Shown: one piece after another, positions 7,326 through 37,782 of the stretch
Layout: the number at the start of each line of letters is the position of its first letter
Position numbering within the stretch: position 1 is the stretch's first letter
Origin: an uncultured Nitrososphaeraceae archaeon
GTDB taxonomy: Archaea > Thermoproteota > Nitrososphaeria > Nitrososphaerales > Nitrososphaeraceae
NCBI GenBank assembly: GCA_963765895.1
Contig: CAVXZB010000084.1
Span: 224,001 to 288,000, forward strand
Reading direction: 5' to 3'
Length of the DNA: 64,000 bases
Position numbers and translations under genes: made by a program
Notes under the pieces: model-generated
Told to the model about the DNA's origin: nothing
The model's database searches: none
What the model saw: only the letters and a program-made list of their open reading frames with translations

Positions 7326-9054
7326 ATATGTATATTCCGTAACAAATTCGATATATTAACTATTAAACAATTTTACAACTGCCTCCTCCTTCTAATACAA
7401 CACTTGATATAACAAATTCAAAATTTCAAATACTTTCACTGATTCGATTATCCAAACTTAGAATCATTTCACCCGAAATCAGATCATATTTTTTTATATC
7501 AAAATGTCCAGTCTCGACCTGATGATCCTCCCAATCAGAGTGGAAAATAAACCTTTGCCGACATTCTACGCATATACATAGTATTTTTAGGTCTTCAGGA
7601 TGCATGATCGTTAATATGGTATAACCAGAACTATCAAATATATAGAATAGGGAAGTAGTTAATATTCGTTTTATTCGGATTTTTTTTACGAAGTATTCGA
7701 TGTAACCTTGAAGAGGTATTTTGGTAACATCTTCGTTCTCTAATACATTATATACTCAGATTGTTATTTTATCACTTGTCTACAATTCCAAAGCTGCTCT
7801 ACATTGTAATATATTAATGTGATAGCATAACTCTACCATCTCAAACTACTGCAAATGATTATTATTGATTTCTAATTTATACTTTGATCCTTTGGACTAG
7901 TATAACTGGAAATAACTATATAATTCACTAAGATGGTTCAGGCAAATTTAGGTGTATCATTTTAGTTAATGGTTCATTGCAAGAAATCATATCTTATCAT
8001 ATATCTCACTTGTCATTGGTTTTCTTATTAAAACAGGGCCTGATTATCTATTGAGCCAATACAATTCGTTTCTTGAGTATCGATCCTGATTGTGGCTAAC
8101 CCCGTACTGAGTATTAATCTTCATAACTATAAATCCAACAAAGCTGACAAAAAATGAAATACACCTAGATAAGTTGGTATTTGATCAATAATGAATAATG
8201 TCCTCTGCAATTGTACTTCCATATAAAAATGTGATTTGACCATGGATTATCCTAATTGGCATATTACTAGATACGATTAGAACCTAGGATTCTATCCAAT
8301 AGATAATGATACCTTATATTACTCTTCTTAAAGATCCAAGAATAATACTTCTATTCAGTATAGAGAGAAATGAGAAACACTATTAGTTTTTTATATCTAA
8401 AGCGAACAGAATAGGAAAGGATTGGATATTGAAATAATTAATAAGTAATAGAACTGTAGTGTCTGGTGGTCAGTAAATAAATCAGAGGTCTAAACATAAG
8501 AATAGCAATACCCGATCCGGAACAATAAATATGCTGTACCAGTCTTTGTAACAAAAAAATTCTCGCCTCAGGAATTGAAGTAGATAAATTAGAGGAGGAT
8601 CATATTTTTTAAAATAATCGTTTTTAAATCATCTGGCCTTTAGGCTATCTAATGTTGTGCATGTAGATGAGCTCACTATATGTCTAAGTGTTTATCACGA
8701 CCAAAAAATTATTCGTACTTTTGTAATATTGTAACAATTAAGGAAATTTAATTGAGAAGAACATGAGCCTATGAATTACATCACTATTACGCTAGATAAC
8801 TGGCTTCTAGTTGGGTGAGGATCATTGAGGATTCATATTATATTCGATCTCGCAAATAAAAATCAGTGGGCTCCCAGCCCTATTACTAAACCTCGTCAGA
8901 ACCTGCAAATCGTAAGGTCATTTCTACTGCAATAAAAACTCGATGTATAGAGAGTTAACCGGTGGTAAAAGGGTCACTATCTATAAGTAGAATTTTGGTA
9001 TCCAAAGATCAGGCTCATTAGTGAGCATTAGATTTTTCTCGAGTATTTTTGATA

Positions 9055-20748: not shown

Positions 20749-21483
20749 ATGTCTGTTAGGATTGTTATCGATGAGAGGGAACGAAACAGCCAAATACCCA
20801 AGTTACTCTTGGATGCAGGAGTTAGGGTCAATTTTGCGCAATTGAAAGTTGGGGACTACATAACTTCAGCCGCGACCGCAATTGAAAGAAAGACCATCAA
20901 CGACCTGATCTGTTCTATATATGATGGAAGATTATTTTTGCAATGTAGTGACTTAAACCAGTTTTATTCCAAACCTGTGCTCCTTATCGAGGGCAACATA
21001 TTGGATCTTGCAGATATTCCAGTTGGAATTACAAATGACAAGCAATTGAAAACCCTCGTTGAAAGACTGCCTCTAGCCTACGAAACACTCTCGAAAATAG
21101 TATTAAATTTTAGAATTCCAATAATACCTACACCATCTGCGGAGTACACAGCCCAATTGCTAATTCTTATGGCAAAAATTGCAAGAGATAAGGAAGACGA
21201 CAATGGTCCATTATTAAGGAAAATAAGGAAGGGAAAACCAGCATATTATCAACAGCTTTCGATTTTATCTTCGATACCAGGCATAGGAGACAAGCTGGCG
21301 ATTAGAATGCTTCAAAAATTCAAAACACCAGACAGAGCATTGAATGCAAGTATTGCAGAGCTCGCGATGGTTTCCGGCTTTGGAACAACACGTGCAGTTA
21401 AAGTAAGAGAAATCCTTGACCGGATGGTTGTTGACGATTTAGATTTTGCGGTGCAGACTACCCTCAGTGACAACGGAAGTTAA
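20749..21483 (+). CDS. xpf: Short-form XPF/ERCC4 structure-specific endonuclease
   Basis: VIDERE, VGDY, IERKT..DL..SIYDGRL, HhH repeats IPGIG and VSGFG. Confidence 0.9.
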   Translation: MSVRIVIDERERNSQIPKLLLDAGVRVNFAQLKVGDYITSAATAIERKTINDLICSIYDGRLFLQCSDLNQFYSKPVLLIEGNILDLADIPVGITNDKQLKTLVERLPLAYETLSKIVLNFRIPIIPTPSAEYTAQLLILMAKIARDKEDDNGPLLRKIRKGKPAYYQQLSILSSIPGIGDKLAIRMLQKFKTPDRALNASIAELAMVSGFGTTRAVKVREILDRMVVDDLDFAVQTTLSDNGS

Positions 21484-21579: not shown

Positions 21580-23727
21580 CTAAAGAGATACAGACTGGGC
21601 TTGGAATATCGATGGAGAGTTACAAAAGGGACAATTCGCACTATTCAATGCAGTGGACTTCTTGCCACATGTATTACATATCTTAATCTTTAGCTTGGGA
21701 CGCATGTAATTAAGATTAGAAGCGATTTCTAGCGTCTTTTTTGTGTCTGAAATAGAAGTACTGTTGCTAAAATCGATATCGACAGATAATCCTCCATTAA
21801 GTAGTCTATCTATCGCATTAAATTCCTCTATAGCCCTAATCGTGTCCTCACCGTGCAAAATTTTGGCGCCATCTAGTAACATACCCTGAGAATATATATC
21901 ATACTCCTTCTTTGGTGCAAGTATAAGACTTCGACCATACTTGTCGGAGTCGAGAGTGGCAAATCTAGAAGTACCATGATCGTGTATCATAGCAACTCCT
22001 ATTGTTTCTTCACCTAATTGTTTTCCTTGATCCATTGCCACATCGACTGAAGTCTTAATTACTTTGTGCAATATTTCTGGCCCGTTATTAGTAGCATCGT
22101 GTCCCAGGATATCGTAAACTGCCTCTCTAGCTCCAGCCAGGTTAATTATTATGTTAGCAACCCCTACTTCCATGTATTTGGCGCTACTTGCAACTATTGG
22201 TAGCGTTCCCTTCAGTATCAGATCGGTAATAATTTTCTTTCTAATTGATAACGCCATTAATGCTGGCTTAATTAACATCGCAAGCCGGGCACGAAAATAT
22301 GTTTCATCCTTGTTTGATTGGTAGGCAATTCTGGGAAGATTAATTGAAAGGGATTGCAATGTTATAACTGTGTTCGAAACCTTGTCACCAATGGATTTTC
22401 TAACTCCATTATTAGATCTTGTACCATCTTTAGAAATTGATATGACTCCCCCAAGTCTTATATTAGACGCAACCCTTTCTGAATGAATTCCAAATTTATG
22501 ACTGTTGGGATTGTATATTAATTCGAGGCCAATTCTGGGTATAGGCGTGCATTCAACATACTTTGAATAGCCAACTAGCAAGTCATCAATAAACTTGTCC
22601 TCCAATTCTTCTATAGGTAATATTATCGTCGTGAGAGGTAATCCAGAAATAGAGTAAGATGGGGATGATGAAGCATTCATTAACATTTTAGAAAATAATG
22701 ATGCAACGTTTCCCAGATTATCGGATAATTCTAGCATCTTGTGAGGTACCCCTTCCAATACGATTTCTGTGGAGGCCTCTCTGTTCAAAAGTGAAATCAA
22801 AATCGAAAGTGTGGAAACAAGGTCGTCAGATCTACGTAGGTTCTCGAATCTTGATACGTTCAGGTATTTCCCTTTAAAATTTAAACCGTTTGCACACAGG
22901 TCGTTAACATTGAGAAATATACTATCTGGCATTAGTCCCCAGGTACCGCAATGTGATATGTTTAATTCTCCTGCTAAATGCATATCAGCTAGATCCTTTG
23001 GAAGCACATTATTCAGAAGATGTTCAGAGAATAAGGAATGTGACACCTTAGAAAAAATACTGTCCATTCCATTTTTGAGTTTGTCGACACTAGCTAGCAT
23101 ATCCACTATATCGGAAGTTGGCAAACCTACCCTCGCCAACTTGTTTCGATAATCTTCATATCCATGCTCCACGAGTACGGAGTTCACAGTTTCTCTGATT
23201 AATGACGAGGTGAGATATGCAGTTTGAAATTTATAGATTTTATTTTCAACCTCTTCTGTAATTTTATGGGCTTGTTCGAGGGGCATATTAGCTTCTCTTA
23301 CCAGGGATTGTACTATTTTGTGTGCGTTGAATTCCTCAATCGAATGTCGAGAGGTCCGGACGTACATTTTACCACTCTCAACTATAGATCGTTCTTCGAT
23401 CTGTCGAGCAAGACTCAATACTAGTTTGCCTAAATTAGTAATAGTGTACCTGCGTTCAGACTTATTGAGAGCAACTAAGGATTGTCTTAGGAGCTTTCTC
23501 AAGTGATACGCAAATTTGCCGGACTCCTTTTTGGATTTAAATCCGGCAAGCGATTTTAACTCAGAATACGTAAGCGGTCCTTTAGAATTTAAAATTCTGA
23601 GGATATCAATCCGGTTAGGACTCGCCATAACCGAGAATATCATTCTAACCCTTTTAGTGGCTGATTCTAATACTCCTCCTCGTCTAGATTCAGTTTGAAA
23701 TGAAAATTCATGGCTCAACTGTTCCAT
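21580..23727 (-). CDS. ArsR-like wHTH + ATP-cone + class III RNR (NrdD)-like barrel + Zn ribbon; probably catalytically inactive
   Basis: SPNRIDILRIL...YHLRKL wHTH; VRTS...EEF...KIVQSL ATP-cone; HLAGELNI and SINLPRIA NrdD-like motifs; CNTC/CPFC; no C-terminal glycyl-radical RVxGY motif. Confidence 0.8.
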   Translation of the reverse strand: MEQLSHEFSFQTESRRGGVLESATKRVRMIFSVMASPNRIDILRILNSKGPLTYSELKSLAGFKSKKESGKFAYHLRKLLRQSLVALNKSERRYTITNLGKLVLSLARQIEERSIVESGKMYVRTSRHSIEEFNAHKIVQSLVREANMPLEQAHKITEEVENKIYKFQTAYLTSSLIRETVNSVLVEHGYEDYRNKLARVGLPTSDIVDMLASVDKLKNGMDSIFSKVSHSLFSEHLLNNVLPKDLADMHLAGELNISHCGTWGLMPDSIFLNVNDLCANGLNFKGKYLNVSRFENLRRSDDLVSTLSILISLLNREASTEIVLEGVPHKMLELSDNLGNVASLFSKMLMNASSSPSYSISGLPLTTIILPIEELEDKFIDDLLVGYSKYVECTPIPRIGLELIYNPNSHKFGIHSERVASNIRLGGVISISKDGTRSNNGVRKSIGDKVSNTVITLQSLSINLPRIAYQSNKDETYFRARLAMLIKPALMALSIRKKIITDLILKGTLPIVASSAKYMEVGVANIIINLAGAREAVYDILGHDATNNGPEILHKVIKTSVDVAMDQGKQLGEETIGVAMIHDHGTSRFATLDSDKYGRSLILAPKKEYDIYSQGMLLDGAKILHGEDTIRAIEEFNAIDRLLNGGLSVDIDFSNSTSISDTKKTLEIASNLNYMRPKLKIKICNTCGKKSTALNSANCPFCNSPSIFQAQSVSL

Positions 23728-23846
23728 TGCACCGTTATTCTGAATAAATGATTAAAACTCCTTTGTAAATATCTTTTCACTAATGATGTAGTAAATAGTA
23801 AATAGTTAATAATAGATGACAAGTGTTTTGGCAGGTTGTCTAGAAT

Positions 23847-24467
23847 TTAACTCTCTACGAGAACTCTGCCTCCATCGAAAACCTGCTCATTCCTATCTGT
23901 GGATTTTGATCGGACATGGGGGATAGTTTGTGGCACGTCTGGTAGCCTCGCTTTTGCCTCGTCTTCCAAGAGATTTTCTACTTCGTCCAGTATCGAGAGT
24001 GCATCCACATCGACCTTCGTAGGAATGATATTTGAATCCACTTTGACTTTGGAATCAAGTAACACTTCCGACGTTACTGAAGCCATTTCGTTGAAGACTC
24101 CCTTTGCGGTAGGAACGACGTTCCAGATCTCATTCTGTATGTCTTTGATCGTTTCGATGGTTGGATTGATAGTTTCTAAAATTTTTGCAAATTCGTTAAT
24201 CGTACTAAAACGTAAGACGATGACTTCTAATGCTAAACACATATTCTGAGAAATACGATTGACATGATGAATATTTGATAGCTCGTTTGCCATGACTCTT
24301 GCATGGGCGTTATTGCCTTTCTTGAGGTTGCAAGCTATTTTATATCGGAAATCCTTATCAATAAGAGCAATTCTTTTATTAAGCATCTTCAGTTTTGTGA
24401 GCTGATTGCTGACTACAATCGTGGCATCCGTAAGATTACTCTTTATATGCTGTCGATGCTGTTCCAT
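23847..24467 (-). CDS. cdvB: ESCRT-III/Snf7-family CdvB paralog
   Basis: Helical Snf7-like core (ARVMANELSNI, LALE..LRFSTI), acidic helix and C-terminal RLPDVP. Confidence 0.72.
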   Translation of the reverse strand: MEQHRQHIKSNLTDATIVVSNQLTKLKMLNKRIALIDKDFRYKIACNLKKGNNAHARVMANELSNIHHVNRISQNMCLALEVIVLRFSTINEFAKILETINPTIETIKDIQNEIWNVVPTAKGVFNEMASVTSEVLLDSKVKVDSNIIPTKVDVDALSILDEVENLLEDEAKARLPDVPQTIPHVRSKSTDRNEQVFDGGRVLVES

Positions 24468-24931
24468 TGGTATTAGTCCTCCACCGAAAAAAAAGATTAA
24501 GAGCTAGTGTTAAGTCGAATGTACAAGCAGCTGTGATAAAGCTAAGCTACTAATATAATGGTTGAAAGAAAAAATTAGGACTTATTCAAGATCATCTATT
24601 GCAGTTATGTCGTTGGTGCATAAGCATATTCCCATAGTAATTTGGTCGATTGACATTCATCTTATAGCCATGCTAGATTTTTTGTTGGGGGCAACGATTT
24701 GATTAATGATCAGACAATGCCACCGTTATCAAGATCTATATATTAATAATAAGCACAGTTACAACGGAATTGGATGCTACAAATGGAATTGAGGTGAATA
24801 ACTAGTCATAAAATCTGACGATTGATACCTCAGAACATTACCTTATGTGAATAACCACTTCCTGCACGATTGTTCTCTTGTGATTTTAAATGCTCTATTC
24901 AAGTACTTTGTGCGATGTCACAAATCTGCAT

Positions 24932-25342
24932 CTATAAGATCAACCGACTAAAGGCTGGAAGAAGATAGAAATTTAGTGAATAATCTCCTATCTGATAGAC
25001 TCCGTTTGCCAAATCTGTGCTACCTGTTTCTATCTCCTTAAACATAACCGTAAAGGATGGTTGTAGTGTAGCAATGACTGCTGATGCACCAACAAATTCC
25101 GCGACTTCTGTAAGCCGTCTTATTTCATAACCCTTTATCCTTGGTATAAGATTACTAGATTTTATCTGAATCAGCCATTTGATCGGATCACGGATTGCAA
25201 CGATGTCAGCTGGCCCTCTGCTGCCTTTGGATATGTTCAATTTCCAGCCTTTTGCTTTAAGAAAAACGGCTACTATAAATTCTGCCTCTCTACCAAACCG
25301 ATAGCTGCAAAATTTTTCGAAGCTCTTTTCTCCTCTGATCAT
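24932..25342 (-). CDS. Hjc-like PD-(D/E)XK nuclease
   Basis: GREAE...GW, GSRGPADIVA, LIQIKS. Confidence 0.7.
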   Translation of the reverse strand: MIRGEKSFEKFCSYRFGREAEFIVAVFLKAKGWKLNISKGSRGPADIVAIRDPIKWLIQIKSSNLIPRIKGYEIRRLTEVAEFVGASAVIATLQPSFTVMFKEIETGSTDLANGVYQIGDYSLNFYLLPAFSRLIL

Positions 25343-27677: not shown

Positions 27678-29147
27678 CTAAACATCAGCATACATTGAAA
27701 ATTCGTGCGGATGTGGTCTAATTGCCACTTCATTATGATCTTTAATTTCATTCTCAATTAGCATATCGATTGCATCATCGCCGAAGACAGGTTTCAGAAA
27801 TAATCTATCATTTTCTAATTCTTCATAGGCATCTCTTAGACTTGCAGGAAGTTGTTTGATCCCGAACTCCCTTCTCTTTTTTGCCGTCATTTTAAAGATA
27901 TCTTCGTCAACGGGGGAACCTATTGGAGTTTTTTTCCGAATACCATCTAGTCCTGCAGCAACAATTGCAGAGAACGCCAAGTAGGGATTGCACGATGGGT
28001 CTGGAGCTCTGAATTCAATTCGTTTCATTTTTGAAAATTTCTGACCCTTGTAATGGGCAGGGATCCTGATTATCGCAGATCTATTACCAGTACTCCATGC
28101 TATATACACTGGTGCTTCGTACCCGGGGACAAGTCTTCTATAGGAATTTGTAGTCGGGGCCACTATAGCTGCAAGAGCATAAGCATGATCCAGTATCCCC
28201 CCTCCGAAATAACGCGCTACTTCAGATAATTCAGCATATTCATCATCAGAGTCAAAGAAGAGATTTGTTCCATTGTTCCACAGGCTTACATTAACATGCA
28301 TCCCCGACCCATTGTCAAGCGCAATTGGTTTTGGCATCATAGTAGCTATCATATTATGTTTCTTAGCTATATTTTTGACTATGTACCTTGTAGACTCTGG
28401 ACTGCATCGGCTGCGTTAGTGAGTGTATCGTATCTAATATCGATTTCGCATTGTCCAGCTGTTGCAACTTCGTGATGATGGGCATCACAAATTATTCCGA
28501 AATTGTTACTTAAAATGTCAACACACTCATTACGATAATCCATCAAAGTATCTCCTGGAGCACTAGGGAGATATCCTTCCTTTAGCCTTAATGCATAACC
28601 TACGCCTTCAGTAGACCATGGCGCTTCTCTAGAAGTTATGTTATAGCTCTGACTATGATATGGAGTCATAGTGTTCACCTCTAGTTTATCAAAGACAAAA
28701 AATTCGACCTCTGGTCCCCAGTATGAAGAATTATAGCCCTGATCTCTTACGTACCTTCTCTGCTTTCATAGCAATTGATCTCGGATCCCGACTGAATGCG
28801 AGCCTCTCGGATCCGCCAACTAGGATATCGCAGATTAATCTTGCTGTATAATCTTTTTCGATCCATGGAATCACGGCATATGTTGATGCATCAGGTTTAA
28901 TGATCAAGTCTGATTCATGAATCTCGGTAAATCCGCGAATAGATGAGCCATCAAGTTTCGGAAGTCCAAATTCAAAATCTTCTTTTTGAAACATATTAGA
29001 TGCCATGGTAGTATGGTGGAATCTACCAGTAAGTCCAGTAAACTGCAAGTCCAAAAACTTGATTCGATCATCTTTAAGCCTCTGCATCACATCAGCAGAT
29101 GTAAAATTTGATCGTTCTATCTTACCGTTATTGACTCTATATGGCAA
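27678..29147 (-). CDS. glnA: Glutamine synthetase type I; two +1 frameshifts (~28753, ~28385)
   Basis: LDGSSIRGF, WGPEVEFF, HHHEVATAGQCEI, GSGMH, NSYRRLVPGYEAP, IEFRAPDP; three ORFs rejoin. Confidence 0.95.
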
Positions 29148-34947: not shown

Positions 34948-37698
34948 TTATCCTGACGCGCAGTTGCTAAACCCACAATCAATACACATACTACAGCCTT
35001 CTGTGATTATTAGTCTTGAATTGCAACAAGGGCAGGTTTCTCCTGGAGGCATTTCGAATAGATGAGATGCTGGTTCTGGTTCATAAGACGTTGTCGGGCC
35101 TATTTCCGAGTTTCGATATGTGCCGGTAGCTTCATGAATCGTCGATTCTTGAAACACCGTTTCCAATTGTTGTTTGACATAGGGGACGATAATGTTGGCT
35201 GCGACGTAGTCTCTTACGAATTTACTTGGTTTTGTGACTCCTCTCTTCTCAAGTCTATTATCTCCTGTGATATGTAATACTTGTTCATGTCTAGACCCGT
35301 CACGATACACAGTAACACCTTTCAGGCCTAGCTCATGGGATAAAAGATACGCCCGTTTTACGTCATCAACAGTCGCATCACCAGGCATATTGATGGTCTT
35401 TGCGATAGCATTAGAAATCCATTTTTGCCATATTGCTTGTGCCATCAAGTGATCTGTCCAATGTATATCAATTGCAGTTACAAAGATATTCTGCATCGAC
35501 TCTGGTATGTCATCAAGACCACTGACCGATCCATAGTTATTAGCTATCCTGGTGAGAATATCGTCATCATATAACCTGTTCAGTTTTAACACATTTTGGA
35601 AGATTCGATTAGTATAAAAGAACCTTCCAACCGTCACACGTTTCTCAAAGACGACTGCAAAAATAGGTTCTATACCATTTGAAGTATCAGCAATCATTGA
35701 TAGTGTTCCTGTGGGGGCAATCGTTGTTGTCCAAGAATTCCTTATCCCATGTTTTTGAATTTTCATGATTAACGAGTTCCAATCATATGAATGTAATTCT
35801 CTAGGTACGTCGTAGTATCCTGCAATGGGTATTTTGCCATCGACATAGTCGGTTTCACTAAAGAGTGGAAATGAGCCTCTTGATTTTGCTATAGCTACAC
35901 TCTCTTCCATGCTATAATAAGAAATAGCTTCTGCTAGTTTGTTCATATGATCGTAGCCATCCTTTGAATTGTATGGTATTCCAAGTAGGAATAAAAGATC
36001 AGCAATGCCCATTATTCCAAGACCGATCCTTCTTGTTAGCTTAGTATTATCCTCAATTTCTTGAACTGGATATTTATTCGTATCAATAATGTTGTCTAAA
36101 AATCTAGTTGACAATCTAACAGCTTGCTCATATCTTTGCCAGTCAAATTCATACATTCCGTCCGCTTTTCGCTTTACAAAGTTTGCGAGATTGATTGAAC
36201 CCAGATTACATGATTCGTATGGATATAATGATTGTTCCCCACATGGATTGGTCGCTCGCAAAGGACCACCCTTCGCCCTCATGCAAGGATTATATCTATT
36301 TATATTATCAAAGAAAATCATTCCTGGCTCAGCACTCTTCCATGCACTAAAAGCAATTAAATCCATCAATTGATGAGGATCTATATGTTTTATAACCTCT
36401 GCAGTTCGAGGATTCCGCAATGCATATTTGGAATTATTCTTATTCACTAGTGAGTTCCAGAAATCTTCCAACATTCCCACACTAACGTTAAAGTTCTCGA
36501 ATATGCCTGGTTTGGTTTTTGCAGTCACAAACTTTTCAATGTCAGGATGCCAGGCTTCTAATATGCCCATATTTGCTCCCCGTCTCTTTCCTCCCTGTTT
36601 TACAACGTCAGTAACAGTATCTATAATCCTCATGAATGAAGTGGGTCCCGATGCGACTCCGGATGTGGATGCAACGATATCGCCTTCCGGACGTAAATCT
36701 GAATAATTGATTCCGACACCTCCACCAGATTTAAAGATCATGGCCGCATCGGTGGATGATTTCATAATGCCGTACATATCGTCTGGCATCTCTAAAACAA
36801 AACAAGCAGATAGCTGTCCCAACCTCGTTCCCGCATTCATCAACGTAGGAGTATTTGGAAGAAAATCTCGGGATATCATTAGATCGTAATATTCTCTAAT
36901 TTTTTGTTCATATGTAGACAGTTTCCCTTCAGCAATTAATTTAAGTAACTGTCTAAAGCTGAGCTTCATATGACCTTGTTCTGCGAGATCAATATAAACT
37001 CGAATTAGTGTTTCAAAGTGATATTTGTTCAGCAGATATTCCCCAATTTTTAGCTTTAGATGAAAATCTTCCGTCTTAGAATAATAAAGGGTGGCCTCAT
37101 TGATATTCTGCGCATGCCTTCCGTTCAAATCGAAGAGTATAGAATCATGCAAAATATCCGGAATTGCTACAAGAATCGCAACTCGTTCGAACATCTGTTT
37201 GGGTCCTTCTATTATTTTGCCAGAGTTATCTCTTAATAGATATCTTGCTGCCAAGACCCTAAGTGAATTCACATCGAATACTTTATCCACATCATCAAGA
37301 TCTCTCTTATTTAGAATCTTCATCTTTTCGTCGCGAATCTTTCGTCGCTCGTGTCGGTATAATATATATGCCTTCGCTGTCTCTGAGAAACCTTCTTCAA
37401 TCAGTATGGATTCCACCATATCTTGAACATCTTCCACGCTTGGAATTGCAGTTATTTCGCTAGAACTATACCCATGTTGAATCATTTTCTGTAATACTTC
37501 GCCTGCCAATCTATCAGACACCGCATAATCAGCCCTACCTGTTGCAATCAAGGCTTTGTAAATTGCATTCGATATCTTAGATTGCCCGAAACTGACCACT
37601 CTGCCATCTCTCTTTTTTATAAGTAGAATCGTGTTCTCCTTAGAGTTATTAACCTCAGTAATTCCCGCCATCCCCTGTGTACCAATCATGTTGATCAA
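34948..37698 (-). CDS. nrdJ: Adenosylcobalamin-dependent (class II) ribonucleotide reductase with N-terminal ATP-cone
   Basis: KKRDG ATP-cone, PNTPTLMN, QLSACF, TNPCGE, ESCNLGSIN, TIAPTGT, GVTVYRDGSR, C-terminal Cys cluster. Confidence 0.95.
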   Translation of the reverse strand: MINMIGTQGMAGITEVNNSKENTILLIKKRDGRVVSFGQSKISNAIYKALIATGRADYAVSDRLAGEVLQKMIQHGYSSSEITAIPSVEDVQDMVESILIEEGFSETAKAYILYRHERRKIRDEKMKILNKRDLDDVDKVFDVNSLRVLAARYLLRDNSGKIIEGPKQMFERVAILVAIPDILHDSILFDLNGRHAQNINEATLYYSKTEDFHLKLKIGEYLLNKYHFETLIRVYIDLAEQGHMKLSFRQLLKLIAEGKLSTYEQKIREYYDLMISRDFLPNTPTLMNAGTRLGQLSACFVLEMPDDMYGIMKSSTDAAMIFKSGGGVGINYSDLRPEGDIVASTSGVASGPTSFMRIIDTVTDVVKQGGKRRGANMGILEAWHPDIEKFVTAKTKPGIFENFNVSVGMLEDFWNSLVNKNNSKYALRNPRTAEVIKHIDPHQLMDLIAFSAWKSAEPGMIFFDNINRYNPCMRAKGGPLRATNPCGEQSLYPYESCNLGSINLANFVKRKADGMYEFDWQRYEQAVRLSTRFLDNIIDTNKYPVQEIEDNTKLTRRIGLGIMGIADLLFLLGIPYNSKDGYDHMNKLAEAISYYSMEESVAIAKSRGSFPLFSETDYVDGKIPIAGYYDVPRELHSYDWNSLIMKIQKHGIRNSWTTTIAPTGTLSMIADTSNGIEPIFAVVFEKRVTVGRFFYTNRIFQNVLKLNRLYDDDILTRIANNYGSVSGLDDIPESMQNIFVTAIDIHWTDHLMAQAIWQKWISNAIAKTINMPGDATVDDVKRAYLLSHELGLKGVTVYRDGSRHEQVLHITGDNRLEKRGVTKPSKFVRDYVAANIIVPYVKQQLETVFQESTIHEATGTYRNSEIGPTTSYEPEPASHLFEMPPGETCPCCNSRLIITEGCSMCIDCGFSNCASG

Positions 37699-37782
37699 TT
37701 ACAATACTTAAAGGCTTTCTCTACAGGATTAGAATGACTTGACAAGAGTACTCATGCTATAATCTAAAATGCATAATAATGC

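Follow-up and report, generated by a model that had tools for sequence, protein, structure and literature searches.

We analyzed a stretch of 64,000 nucleotides from an uncultured archaeon of the family Nitrososphaeraceae (assembly GCA_963765895.1, contig CAVXZB010000084.1, positions 224,001 to 288,000; hereafter the window) with a focus on the open reading frame (ORF) at 21580..23727 on the minus strand. The ORF was translated into a protein of 715 amino acids, which we term REG. The ORF itself, the Pfam and NCBIfam profiles, an AlphaFold2 model, and Foldseek searches assigned to REG a winged helix-turn-helix (wHTH) domain, an ATP-cone, a dead body related to NrdD (the class III ribonucleotide reductase or RNR), and a Zn ribbon. 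Below, we consider REG as a candidate regulator of RNR genes rather than the reductase for which it is named in databases.

A preliminary description of this stretch had proposed an ArsR-like wHTH, an ATP-cone, an NrdD-like body, and a C-terminal CxxC/CxxC in REG, and both Pfam and the sequence agree with this order. The wHTH (residues 30-110; 23398..23640, on the minus strand as are all parts of REG) was detected with DUF7347 (PF24038; 41 bits over residues 30-104, cut-off 27.6) and with HTH_20 (PF12840; 32.3 bits, cut-off 27), and is also marked by its conservation, its low ratio of nonsynonymous to synonymous substitution rates (dN/dS), and weak Foldseek matches. The region of SGKFAYHLRK (residues 69-78) presumably serves as its recognition helix. 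The ATP-cone (residues 121-200; 23128..23367) was detected with PF03477 over residues 121-193 (47 bits, cut-off 25.8, E 3.8e-12), to which its conservation and weak Foldseek matches can be added. The NrdD-fold body devoid of catalytic residues (residues 216-675; 21703..23082) was recognized from alignments, Foldseek, dN/dS, and a homodimer model. Finally, the Zn ribbon (residues 684-702; 21622..21678) comprises the pairs CNTC (684-687) and CPFC (699-702). All four Cys are kept in REG and each of them is found in 306-308 of 322 relatives, namely those of 620-820 amino acids that were retained from 389 proteins after 67 fragments and length outliers were dropped.

The AlphaFold2 model of REG, calculated with an alignment of 72 relatives, reached a predicted local distance difference test value (pLDDT) of 90.9 and a predicted template modelling score (pTM) of 0.88. 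Both the model and Foldseek indicated the ten-stranded alpha/beta barrel fold of RNRs and glycyl-radical enzymes. The best Foldseek matches were all class III RNRs, with E-values from 1.7e-18 to 4.6e-12 and template modelling (TM) scores of 0.5-0.66; they comprised the enzymes of S. thermophilus (9dca_A, the best match, E 1.7e-18), T. maritima (4coj/4u3e, E about 1e-16), P. copri (8p2s_B, root-mean-square deviation 5.1), and phage T4 (1hk8, TM 0.66). Class I RNR subunits matched much more weakly (E about 5e-8, TM about 0.35). At the sequence level, the best match in the PDB was T. maritima NrdD with an E-value of 3e-4. The model of the N-terminal 215 residues found weak matches (E 1.6e-3 to 2e-2), among which were the cones of NrdR (9a6n_B, 9fxk_F, and 9fvr_A) as well as winged helices of the ArsR/SmtB and MarR types (3cuo, 1smt, 1r22, 6uvu, and several MarR proteins). 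Two copies of residues 205-700, modelled with a custom alignment as input, gave a homodimer with a score of 0.79, while the best of three controls scored 0.00; the runs showed a contact agreement of at least 95% and a partner pLDDT of at least 81. Of 30 proteins solved as one-chain pairs, 20 attained the mark of 0.79, compared with 1 of 23 whose solved form is a single chain. As NrdD dimers have already been solved, the homodimer of REG may have passed on account of this likeness.

The residues required for class III chemistry were examined in an alignment with the NrdDs of Escherichia coli (NC_000913.3) and Methanobacterium virus PhiF1 as references. The column of the thiyl Cys (C384 in E. 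coli) is occupied by V442 in REG, within NNGVRK, so that the finger loop noted in the preliminary description as lacking Cys (SNNGVRK) indeed lacks it at the very position concerned. This column holds Cys in 87 of the 322 relatives, which are mostly the long Bathyarchaeia-type forms, and was seen as Cys in none of the close relatives of REG. The second Cys (C175 in E. coli) corresponds to S269, and none of the 322 relatives bears Cys there. In NrdDs, the triphosphate of the substrate is recognized by the conserved HxHD motif, according to PMC11226230. Its position reads N256-I-S-H259 in REG, and the intact motif is found in 0 of 322 relatives. We found neither the RVxGY motif nor a glycyl-radical domain in the REG sequence, which ends 13 residues after CPFC, right after the Zn ribbon as had been described. 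Consistently, the Pfam NRDD match on residues 449-704 covers profile positions 271-529 out of 562, leaving the glycyl-radical end of the profile unmatched. Among the relatives, 15 have no CxxC, while the tail after the last CxxC ends within 25 residues in 173 of the other 307 and is longer in 134. A strict RxxG[YFW] was found in the tail of a single one of these 307 sequences (P0202), and the typical long tail resembles SR-x-SAKYL, with Lys or Arg at the position expected for the radical Gly. The Asn of the NLPR motif is kept (N463 in REG; 320 of 322 relatives). The NrdD equivalog TIGR02487 scored 48.6 bits on REG against a cut-off of 326.35, in comparison with 513.5 bits (cut-off 326) for the genuine NrdD adjoining one REG relative (locus L098). 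We thus rejected REG as a member of NrdD on the grounds of the missing glycyl-radical domain, thiyl Cys, second Cys, and HxHD, together with the equivalog score far below the cut-off. Judged from its sequence, REG is catalytically dead as an RNR, as four independent catalytic features are lost.

The genome that the window belongs to (4.9 Mb in 88 contigs, 88% complete) tells the same about the activase. REG is the single match of PF13597 in this genome, and no NrdG was found in its 88% complete sequence (47 bits for the best match of TIGR02495 against a cut-off of 131; no match of TIGR02491), extending to the whole assembly the earlier remark that no activase lies nearby. As to the comparison of phyletic profiles called for in the preliminary description, none of 61 genomes of the family yielded NrdG2 at E<=1e-15, with a narrow model that exceeded its cut-off in just 2 of 14 control genomes, and REG is present in 141 of 151. 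Relatives carry the database name 'anaerobic ribonucleoside-triphosphate reductase', in agreement with the preliminary description.

REG was found in 141 of 151 Nitrososphaeraceae genomes (a tally including the unpublished genomes G035 and G076), in 101 of the 103 high-quality ones, and in all 18 genera, nearly always as a single copy. In a large protein collection, 3971 relatives were found at E<=1e-3 among 8000 scored, and a library clustered at 50% identity contained 976 representatives. The search of phage records by tblastn gave no match to REG, while P0166, a Bathyarchaeia-type relative, matches phage NrdDs. Whole REG proteins are 49-66% identical among ammonia oxidisers outside the genus of the window. 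The N-terminal 215 residues are far more alike, with 77-94% identity among members of Nitrososphaeraceae and Nitrosopumilaceae (82-94% in 27 of 28 rows) and 39-44% identity to the Bathyarchaeia-type forms.

Conservation within the protein follows its domains. Of the 80 columns of the ATP-cone, 32 are conserved at 90% or more, as are 14 of the 81 wHTH columns and 22 of the 415 body columns. Nine residues of the cone (V123, R124, E131, F133, I138, R178, Y193, R194, and R199) recur in 310-322 of the 322 relatives, and the basic or aromatic residues of the type that contacts nucleotide phosphates (R124, K137, Y193, R194, and R199) in 294-319. Compared with three orthologues of the same genus, two of which gave saturated dS, dN/dS was 0.08-0.10 for the whole gene, 0-0.014 for the wHTH and ATP-cone (0 to 0.013 for the wHTH), and 0.09-0.16 for the NrdD-like body. 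By this substitution pattern, purifying selection acts on REG, most strongly on the wHTH and ATP-cone, and the gene is still functional.

We then compared the gene order around REG and its relatives in 80 loci from named ammonia-oxidiser genomes and 77 Bathyarchaeia-type metagenome loci. In 58 of the 80 ammonia-oxidiser loci, nrdJ lies directly downstream of REG on the same strand at a distance of 45-1304 bp. The remaining 22 consist of 15 loci with less than 600 bp of downstream sequence, two with about 1.5 kb, and five with more than 5.6 kb and no nrdJ, namely L013, L014, and L031 of the window's own lineage as well as L016 and L023. The longer relatives of REG (about 750-780 amino acids) bear Bathyarchaeia names. 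Of their 77 loci, 34 have a genuine nrdD on the same strand as the long relative, ending 1.9-3.0 kb downstream of it; 41 loci were too short to tell and two (L155 and L169) had 6 kb and no nrdD, so that 34 of the 36 informative loci have nrdD downstream. RVTGY or RITGY plus HxHD were found in 29 of these 34 nrdD neighbours. A search of the same loci with E. coli NrdG by tblastn gave no activase, the query being too distant to count as absence. Thus, REG is linked to nrdD (class III) in anaerobes and to nrdJ (class II) in aerobic ammonia oxidisers, that is, it tracks the RNR of its host. This linkage to RNRs of two classes, seen in two classes of archaea, is the strongest argument for an RNR-related role of REG.

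The RNR of the host is, in the window, encoded by nrdJ at 34948..37671 on the minus strand, a class II (B12-dependent) enzyme with its own ATP-cone. The assignment follows from PF02867 (E 9e-149), the ATP-cone, and TIGR02504 (751 bits, cut-off 400), and the start was set by conservation at the ATG at 37671, with a TTG at 37698 rejected. It lies upstream of REG, whose start is 11.2 kb from the nrdJ stop, in accord with the class II gene placed about 11 kb away in the preliminary description. In the 88% complete genome, nrdJ was the sole RNR found (one PF02867 match), NrdB was not found, and NrdR (TIGR00244) gave no match. The genome contains exactly two ATP-cones, one in nrdJ and the other in REG.

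Altogether, we regard REG as a nucleotide-sensing transcription regulator of RNR genes, similar to NrdR in role and outside the NrdR family, and assign a probability of roughly 0.6 to this reading. The ArsR-like winged helix would bind the promoter of an RNR gene, which in most relatives is the next gene downstream and here presumably is the class II nrdJ; REG may bind its own promoter too. The ATP-cone would sense the balance of ATP and dATP and set the DNA-binding state, as in NrdR. The NrdD-fold body, having lost radical chemistry and substrate binding, would act as a dimeric scaffold instead. Two REG chains would pair via an interface of the NrdD type, and the dimer would offer DNA a pair of wHTH domains. 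The body may also retain, where the specificity site used to be, a second module for nucleotide binding. Binding of DNA and of nucleotides, dimer formation in vivo, the direction of control, and the regulated gene in this genus are what we infer under the proposed regulation. The claim in the preliminary description that an enzyme scaffold had been turned into a nucleotide-pool sensor and regulator is supported, each part of it that could be checked having been borne out, by the dead enzyme, the conserved wHTH and cone, and the linkage to RNR genes; in this genus, REG is not next to nrdJ and no operator could be defined.

The proposed role has a bacterial counterpart. NrdR, a repressor specific to RNR genes, recognizes pairs of palindromic boxes in their promoters in a manner dependent on ATP and dATP. 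REG resembles it in coupling an ATP-cone to a DNA-binding module and in the linkage of its gene to RNR genes, and the presumed logic, sensing ATP/dATP and setting RNR transcription, would be analogous. The two differ in the N-terminus (a Zn ribbon in NrdR but an ArsR-like wHTH in REG), in the dead NrdD body of 500 residues carried by REG, and in the pair of cone residues that reads V-R, not K-R. Having an ATP-cone but a wHTH at the N-terminus and no TIGR00244 match, REG was rejected as a member of NrdR. With NrdD, it shares the fold, an ATP-cone towards the N-terminus, the NLPR motif, the C-terminal Zn ribbon, and the modelled dimer; it differs in the additional wHTH and the catalytic losses described above, as well as in the lack of a detected NrdG. 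The likeness to ArsR/SmtB and MarR proteins consists of the HTH_20 and DUF7347 matches over their cut-offs and weak structural matches, whereas the fusion to an ATP-cone and an enzyme-derived body sets REG apart from ArsR/SmtB. The metalloregulator subfamily was rejected for REG (NCBIfam HTH_metalloreg, 23.6 bits against a cut-off of 55). PutA, BirA, and NadR are precedents for a metabolic enzyme fold joined to a DNA-binding domain, in which the level of a metabolite sets transcription. These three proteins retain their catalytic activity, while REG has lost its catalytic features.

REG is a concrete and testable candidate for the transcriptional control of RNR in archaea, as it is conserved, single-copy, and travels with RNR of either class. 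Cultivable relatives exist among ammonia oxidisers. In addition, REG offers a clean case of a pseudoenzyme, in which the scaffold stays under selection after the loss of every catalytic feature. The label of anaerobic RNR on thousands of database entries in obligate aerobes could mislead reconstructions of oxygen tolerance. A full-text literature search, with subscription journals outside its coverage, found no description of the architecture made of a wHTH, an ATP-cone, and a dead NrdD, and the accessible parts of PMC11226230, PMC9110341, and PMC4390871 make no mention of it. In the accessible part of PMC9110341, NrdR is described as rare in archaea. We regard REG as most likely an undescribed switch for the supply of DNA precursors rather than the enzyme named in databases.

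Several observations weigh against the proposed regulation of RNR genes. REG is unlinked from nrdJ in the window's genus and in two neighbouring genera. Within the genus, distances between the two genes span 11-34 kb; they are 12-13 kb (G002, G020, and G055) or 33 kb (G044) apart or are on separate contigs (G065). In the two next genera, they are separated by 461 kb (G041) or by 31 kb on opposite strands (G015) or are on different contigs (G017, G030, and G052). As the link is broken here, the synteny argument is borrowed from relatives, and any regulation of nrdJ by REG in this lineage would be in trans. The V-R pair of the cone in place of the canonical K-R in the alignment implies that the ligand of the REG cone could differ. 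The structural matches of the N-terminal model are weak (E >= 1.6e-3), and the regulator reading is computational throughout. Lastly, no motif shared by nrdJ promoters across clades was found, the conserved elements being clade-specific. As the wHTH is near-invariant among ammonia oxidisers, yet no shared motif was found, this result counts against a simple model.

The promoter comparisons were as follows. In an alignment of six members of the genus, the block of about 55 bases before the nrdJ start (37672..37725, minus strand) is conserved and the rest of the spacer is variable. The block contains a TATA-like CCTTTAAG followed by a 10-base palindrome between this element and the start codon. 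The palindrome reads GTTGATCAAC in the genus relatives and has one mismatch in the window, where it occupies 37690-37699 as a candidate site. We rejected GTTGATCAAC as a genome-wide regulon motif, since six copies were counted against 5.8 expected and related words occurred at or below expectation. In the window, its one-mismatch matches numbered four against 2.7 expected. In other Nitrososphaeraceae, the nrdJ TATA is immediately preceded by CATTAT-N7-11-ATAATG, an inverted repeat rich in A/T that is absent from the window's genus. In 897 kb of loci, it occurred in five copies, four of them in spacers between REG and nrdJ; the copies are related sequences, and we take the repeat as a lead only for an operator. 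G015 retains this type of promoter despite its REG gene being 31 kb away. A separate conserved block, in which GGTGTCAA (GGTGT[CTA]AA) keeps a constant spacing to nrdJ, was seen in Nitrosopumilaceae-like loci only. Word enrichment in 44 non-redundant nrdJ upstream regions (of 64) yielded A/T-rich words only and no operator, inverted-repeat scans found nothing shared by the three promoters of the window, and no paired sites resembling NrdR boxes were found. As a separate observation, four loci of another genus (L175-L178; genus g17), in which the REG gene is unlinked, bear an A/T-rich palindrome some 60 bases before nrdJ begins, on the upstream side of its TATA-like element. This palindrome reads CATAATA-AAA-TATTATG in L175, with near-copies in L176-L178, and its half-sites differ from the repeat of the other genera.

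The neighbours of REG in the window bear on another explanation. The spacer upstream of REG (23728..23846, minus strand) was aligned with those of L013, L014, and L031; its proximal part of about 65 bases is conserved within the genus and has a TATA-like element. Directly upstream lies a gene for a Snf7/ESCRT-III-like (CdvB-type) protein of 206 amino acids (23847..24467, minus strand), recognized by weak Pfam matches (Ist1, E 0.002; Snf7, E 0.027) and by Snf7 clusters of the Atlas (0.96-0.98). This gene is found directly upstream of REG in 58 of the 80 ammonia-oxidiser loci, all of them Nitrososphaeraceae-like. It was not detected in 20 Nitrosopumilaceae-like loci, nor was it seen in Bathyarchaeia-type loci with the window's gene as query. 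Further, an XPF/ERCC4-type nuclease with helix-hairpin-helix motifs is encoded at 20749-21483 on the plus strand, convergent to REG, and a Hjc-like Holliday-junction resolvase at 24932-25342 on the minus strand, upstream of the ESCRT-III-like gene. With these three neighbours, REG sits among genes of DNA repair and cell division in this genus.

Assembled contigs from soil RNA libraries gave an additional view of this neighbourhood. Six metatranscriptome runs hold the stretch, and contigs of four runs from four studies cover REG and the ESCRT-III-like gene, bridging the spacer between them. The contigs from these four studies leave the upstream spacer at 24550-24900 uncovered, which argues weakly for RNA rather than carried-over DNA. 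Contigs of 4.2 kb in X17 and X18 span convergent genes and therefore do not represent one transcript. In three runs, the contigs break off at 24458-24462, close to where the ESCRT-III-like gene begins; this suggests a transcript end weakly at best. What also weighs against the proposed regulation is that assembled contigs are blind to strand, ends, and level, and that DNA carry-over is possible.

From these observations, one may suppose that REG regulates genes other than, or well beyond, those for RNR, such as genes for cell division and DNA repair, and thereby couples the energy or deoxyribonucleoside triphosphate (dNTP) status to the cell cycle. The separation of REG from nrdJ in this lineage, its constant ESCRT-III/Snf7-like partner in Nitrososphaeraceae, the flanking XPF and Hjc genes, and the contigs that bridge the spacer are all consistent with such a role. 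However, the partner is missing from what was detected in the Nitrosopumilaceae-like and Bathyarchaeia-type loci, and the RNR neighbour is kept in both of these groups although the class of RNR differs. We therefore consider a main function beyond RNR unlikely.

A wider account would combine this neighbourhood with the regulation of RNR genes by REG. The family would be the missing general regulator of dNTP supply across much of the Archaea, namely Nitrososphaeria and Bathyarchaeia, having arisen by duplication of nrdD beside the working gene and having been retained when class II RNR replaced class III as ammonia oxidisers became aerobic. It would read ATP/dATP at the cone and dNTPs at the dimer interface, in a relic of the specificity site. 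Among Nitrososphaeraceae of soil, it would act in trans and be tied to the ESCRT-III-like cell-division gene, coupling dNTP supply to the cell cycle. Taken as a joint claim, this account is tentative and rather doubtful.

Alternatively, REG might act at the protein level, as a dead paralogue that binds the working RNR (NrdD in anaerobes and NrdJ here) or its partners and tunes activity, with the wHTH put to some other use. The purifying selection on the body (dN/dS about 0.1) and the NrdD-type dimer interface kept in the model fit this idea, as does the position of the Bathyarchaeia-type relative beside a true NrdD gene with a glutaredoxin-like gene in between. On the other hand, ammonia oxidisers have no NrdD to partner with, and a pure protein partner would have no use for a wHTH, yet this domain ranks with the best-conserved parts of REG. 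Such a role in place of DNA binding appears decidedly unlikely. The idea that REG is still an enzyme, whether a reductase with another radical source or a protein with a different nucleotide-dependent activity, can appeal to the barrel fold, to the NLPR motif with its Asn in 320 of 322 relatives, to the Zn ribbon, and to the database name of anaerobic RNR, but is extremely improbable with the thiyl Cys, the second Cys, the glycyl-radical domain, and HxHD all gone, no activase found, and the equivalog score far under the cut-off.

Some minor observations are added here. In L098, the dead NrdD-like gene and the genuine nrdD are separated by the glutaredoxin-like ORF (103 amino acids; 8544-8855, plus strand), whose product may be the reductant for the adjoining class III RNR. 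In the window, glutamine synthetase appears to be split into an ORF for the N-terminal beta-grasp domain at 28731-29147 and a catalytic ORF at 27678-28352 (profile positions 133-344), both on the minus strand, with about 380 bases without an open frame between them; the split reflects either a frameshift or an assembly error. The archaeal amoA was likewise found by a profile match in the genome of the window, in three adjacent frames (G000:C24:168102-168652; profile positions 1-86, 84-108, and 109-183). Together, the two split genes hint at assembly indel errors or real pseudogenes. The presence of amoA fits the assignment of the organism to ammonia oxidisers.

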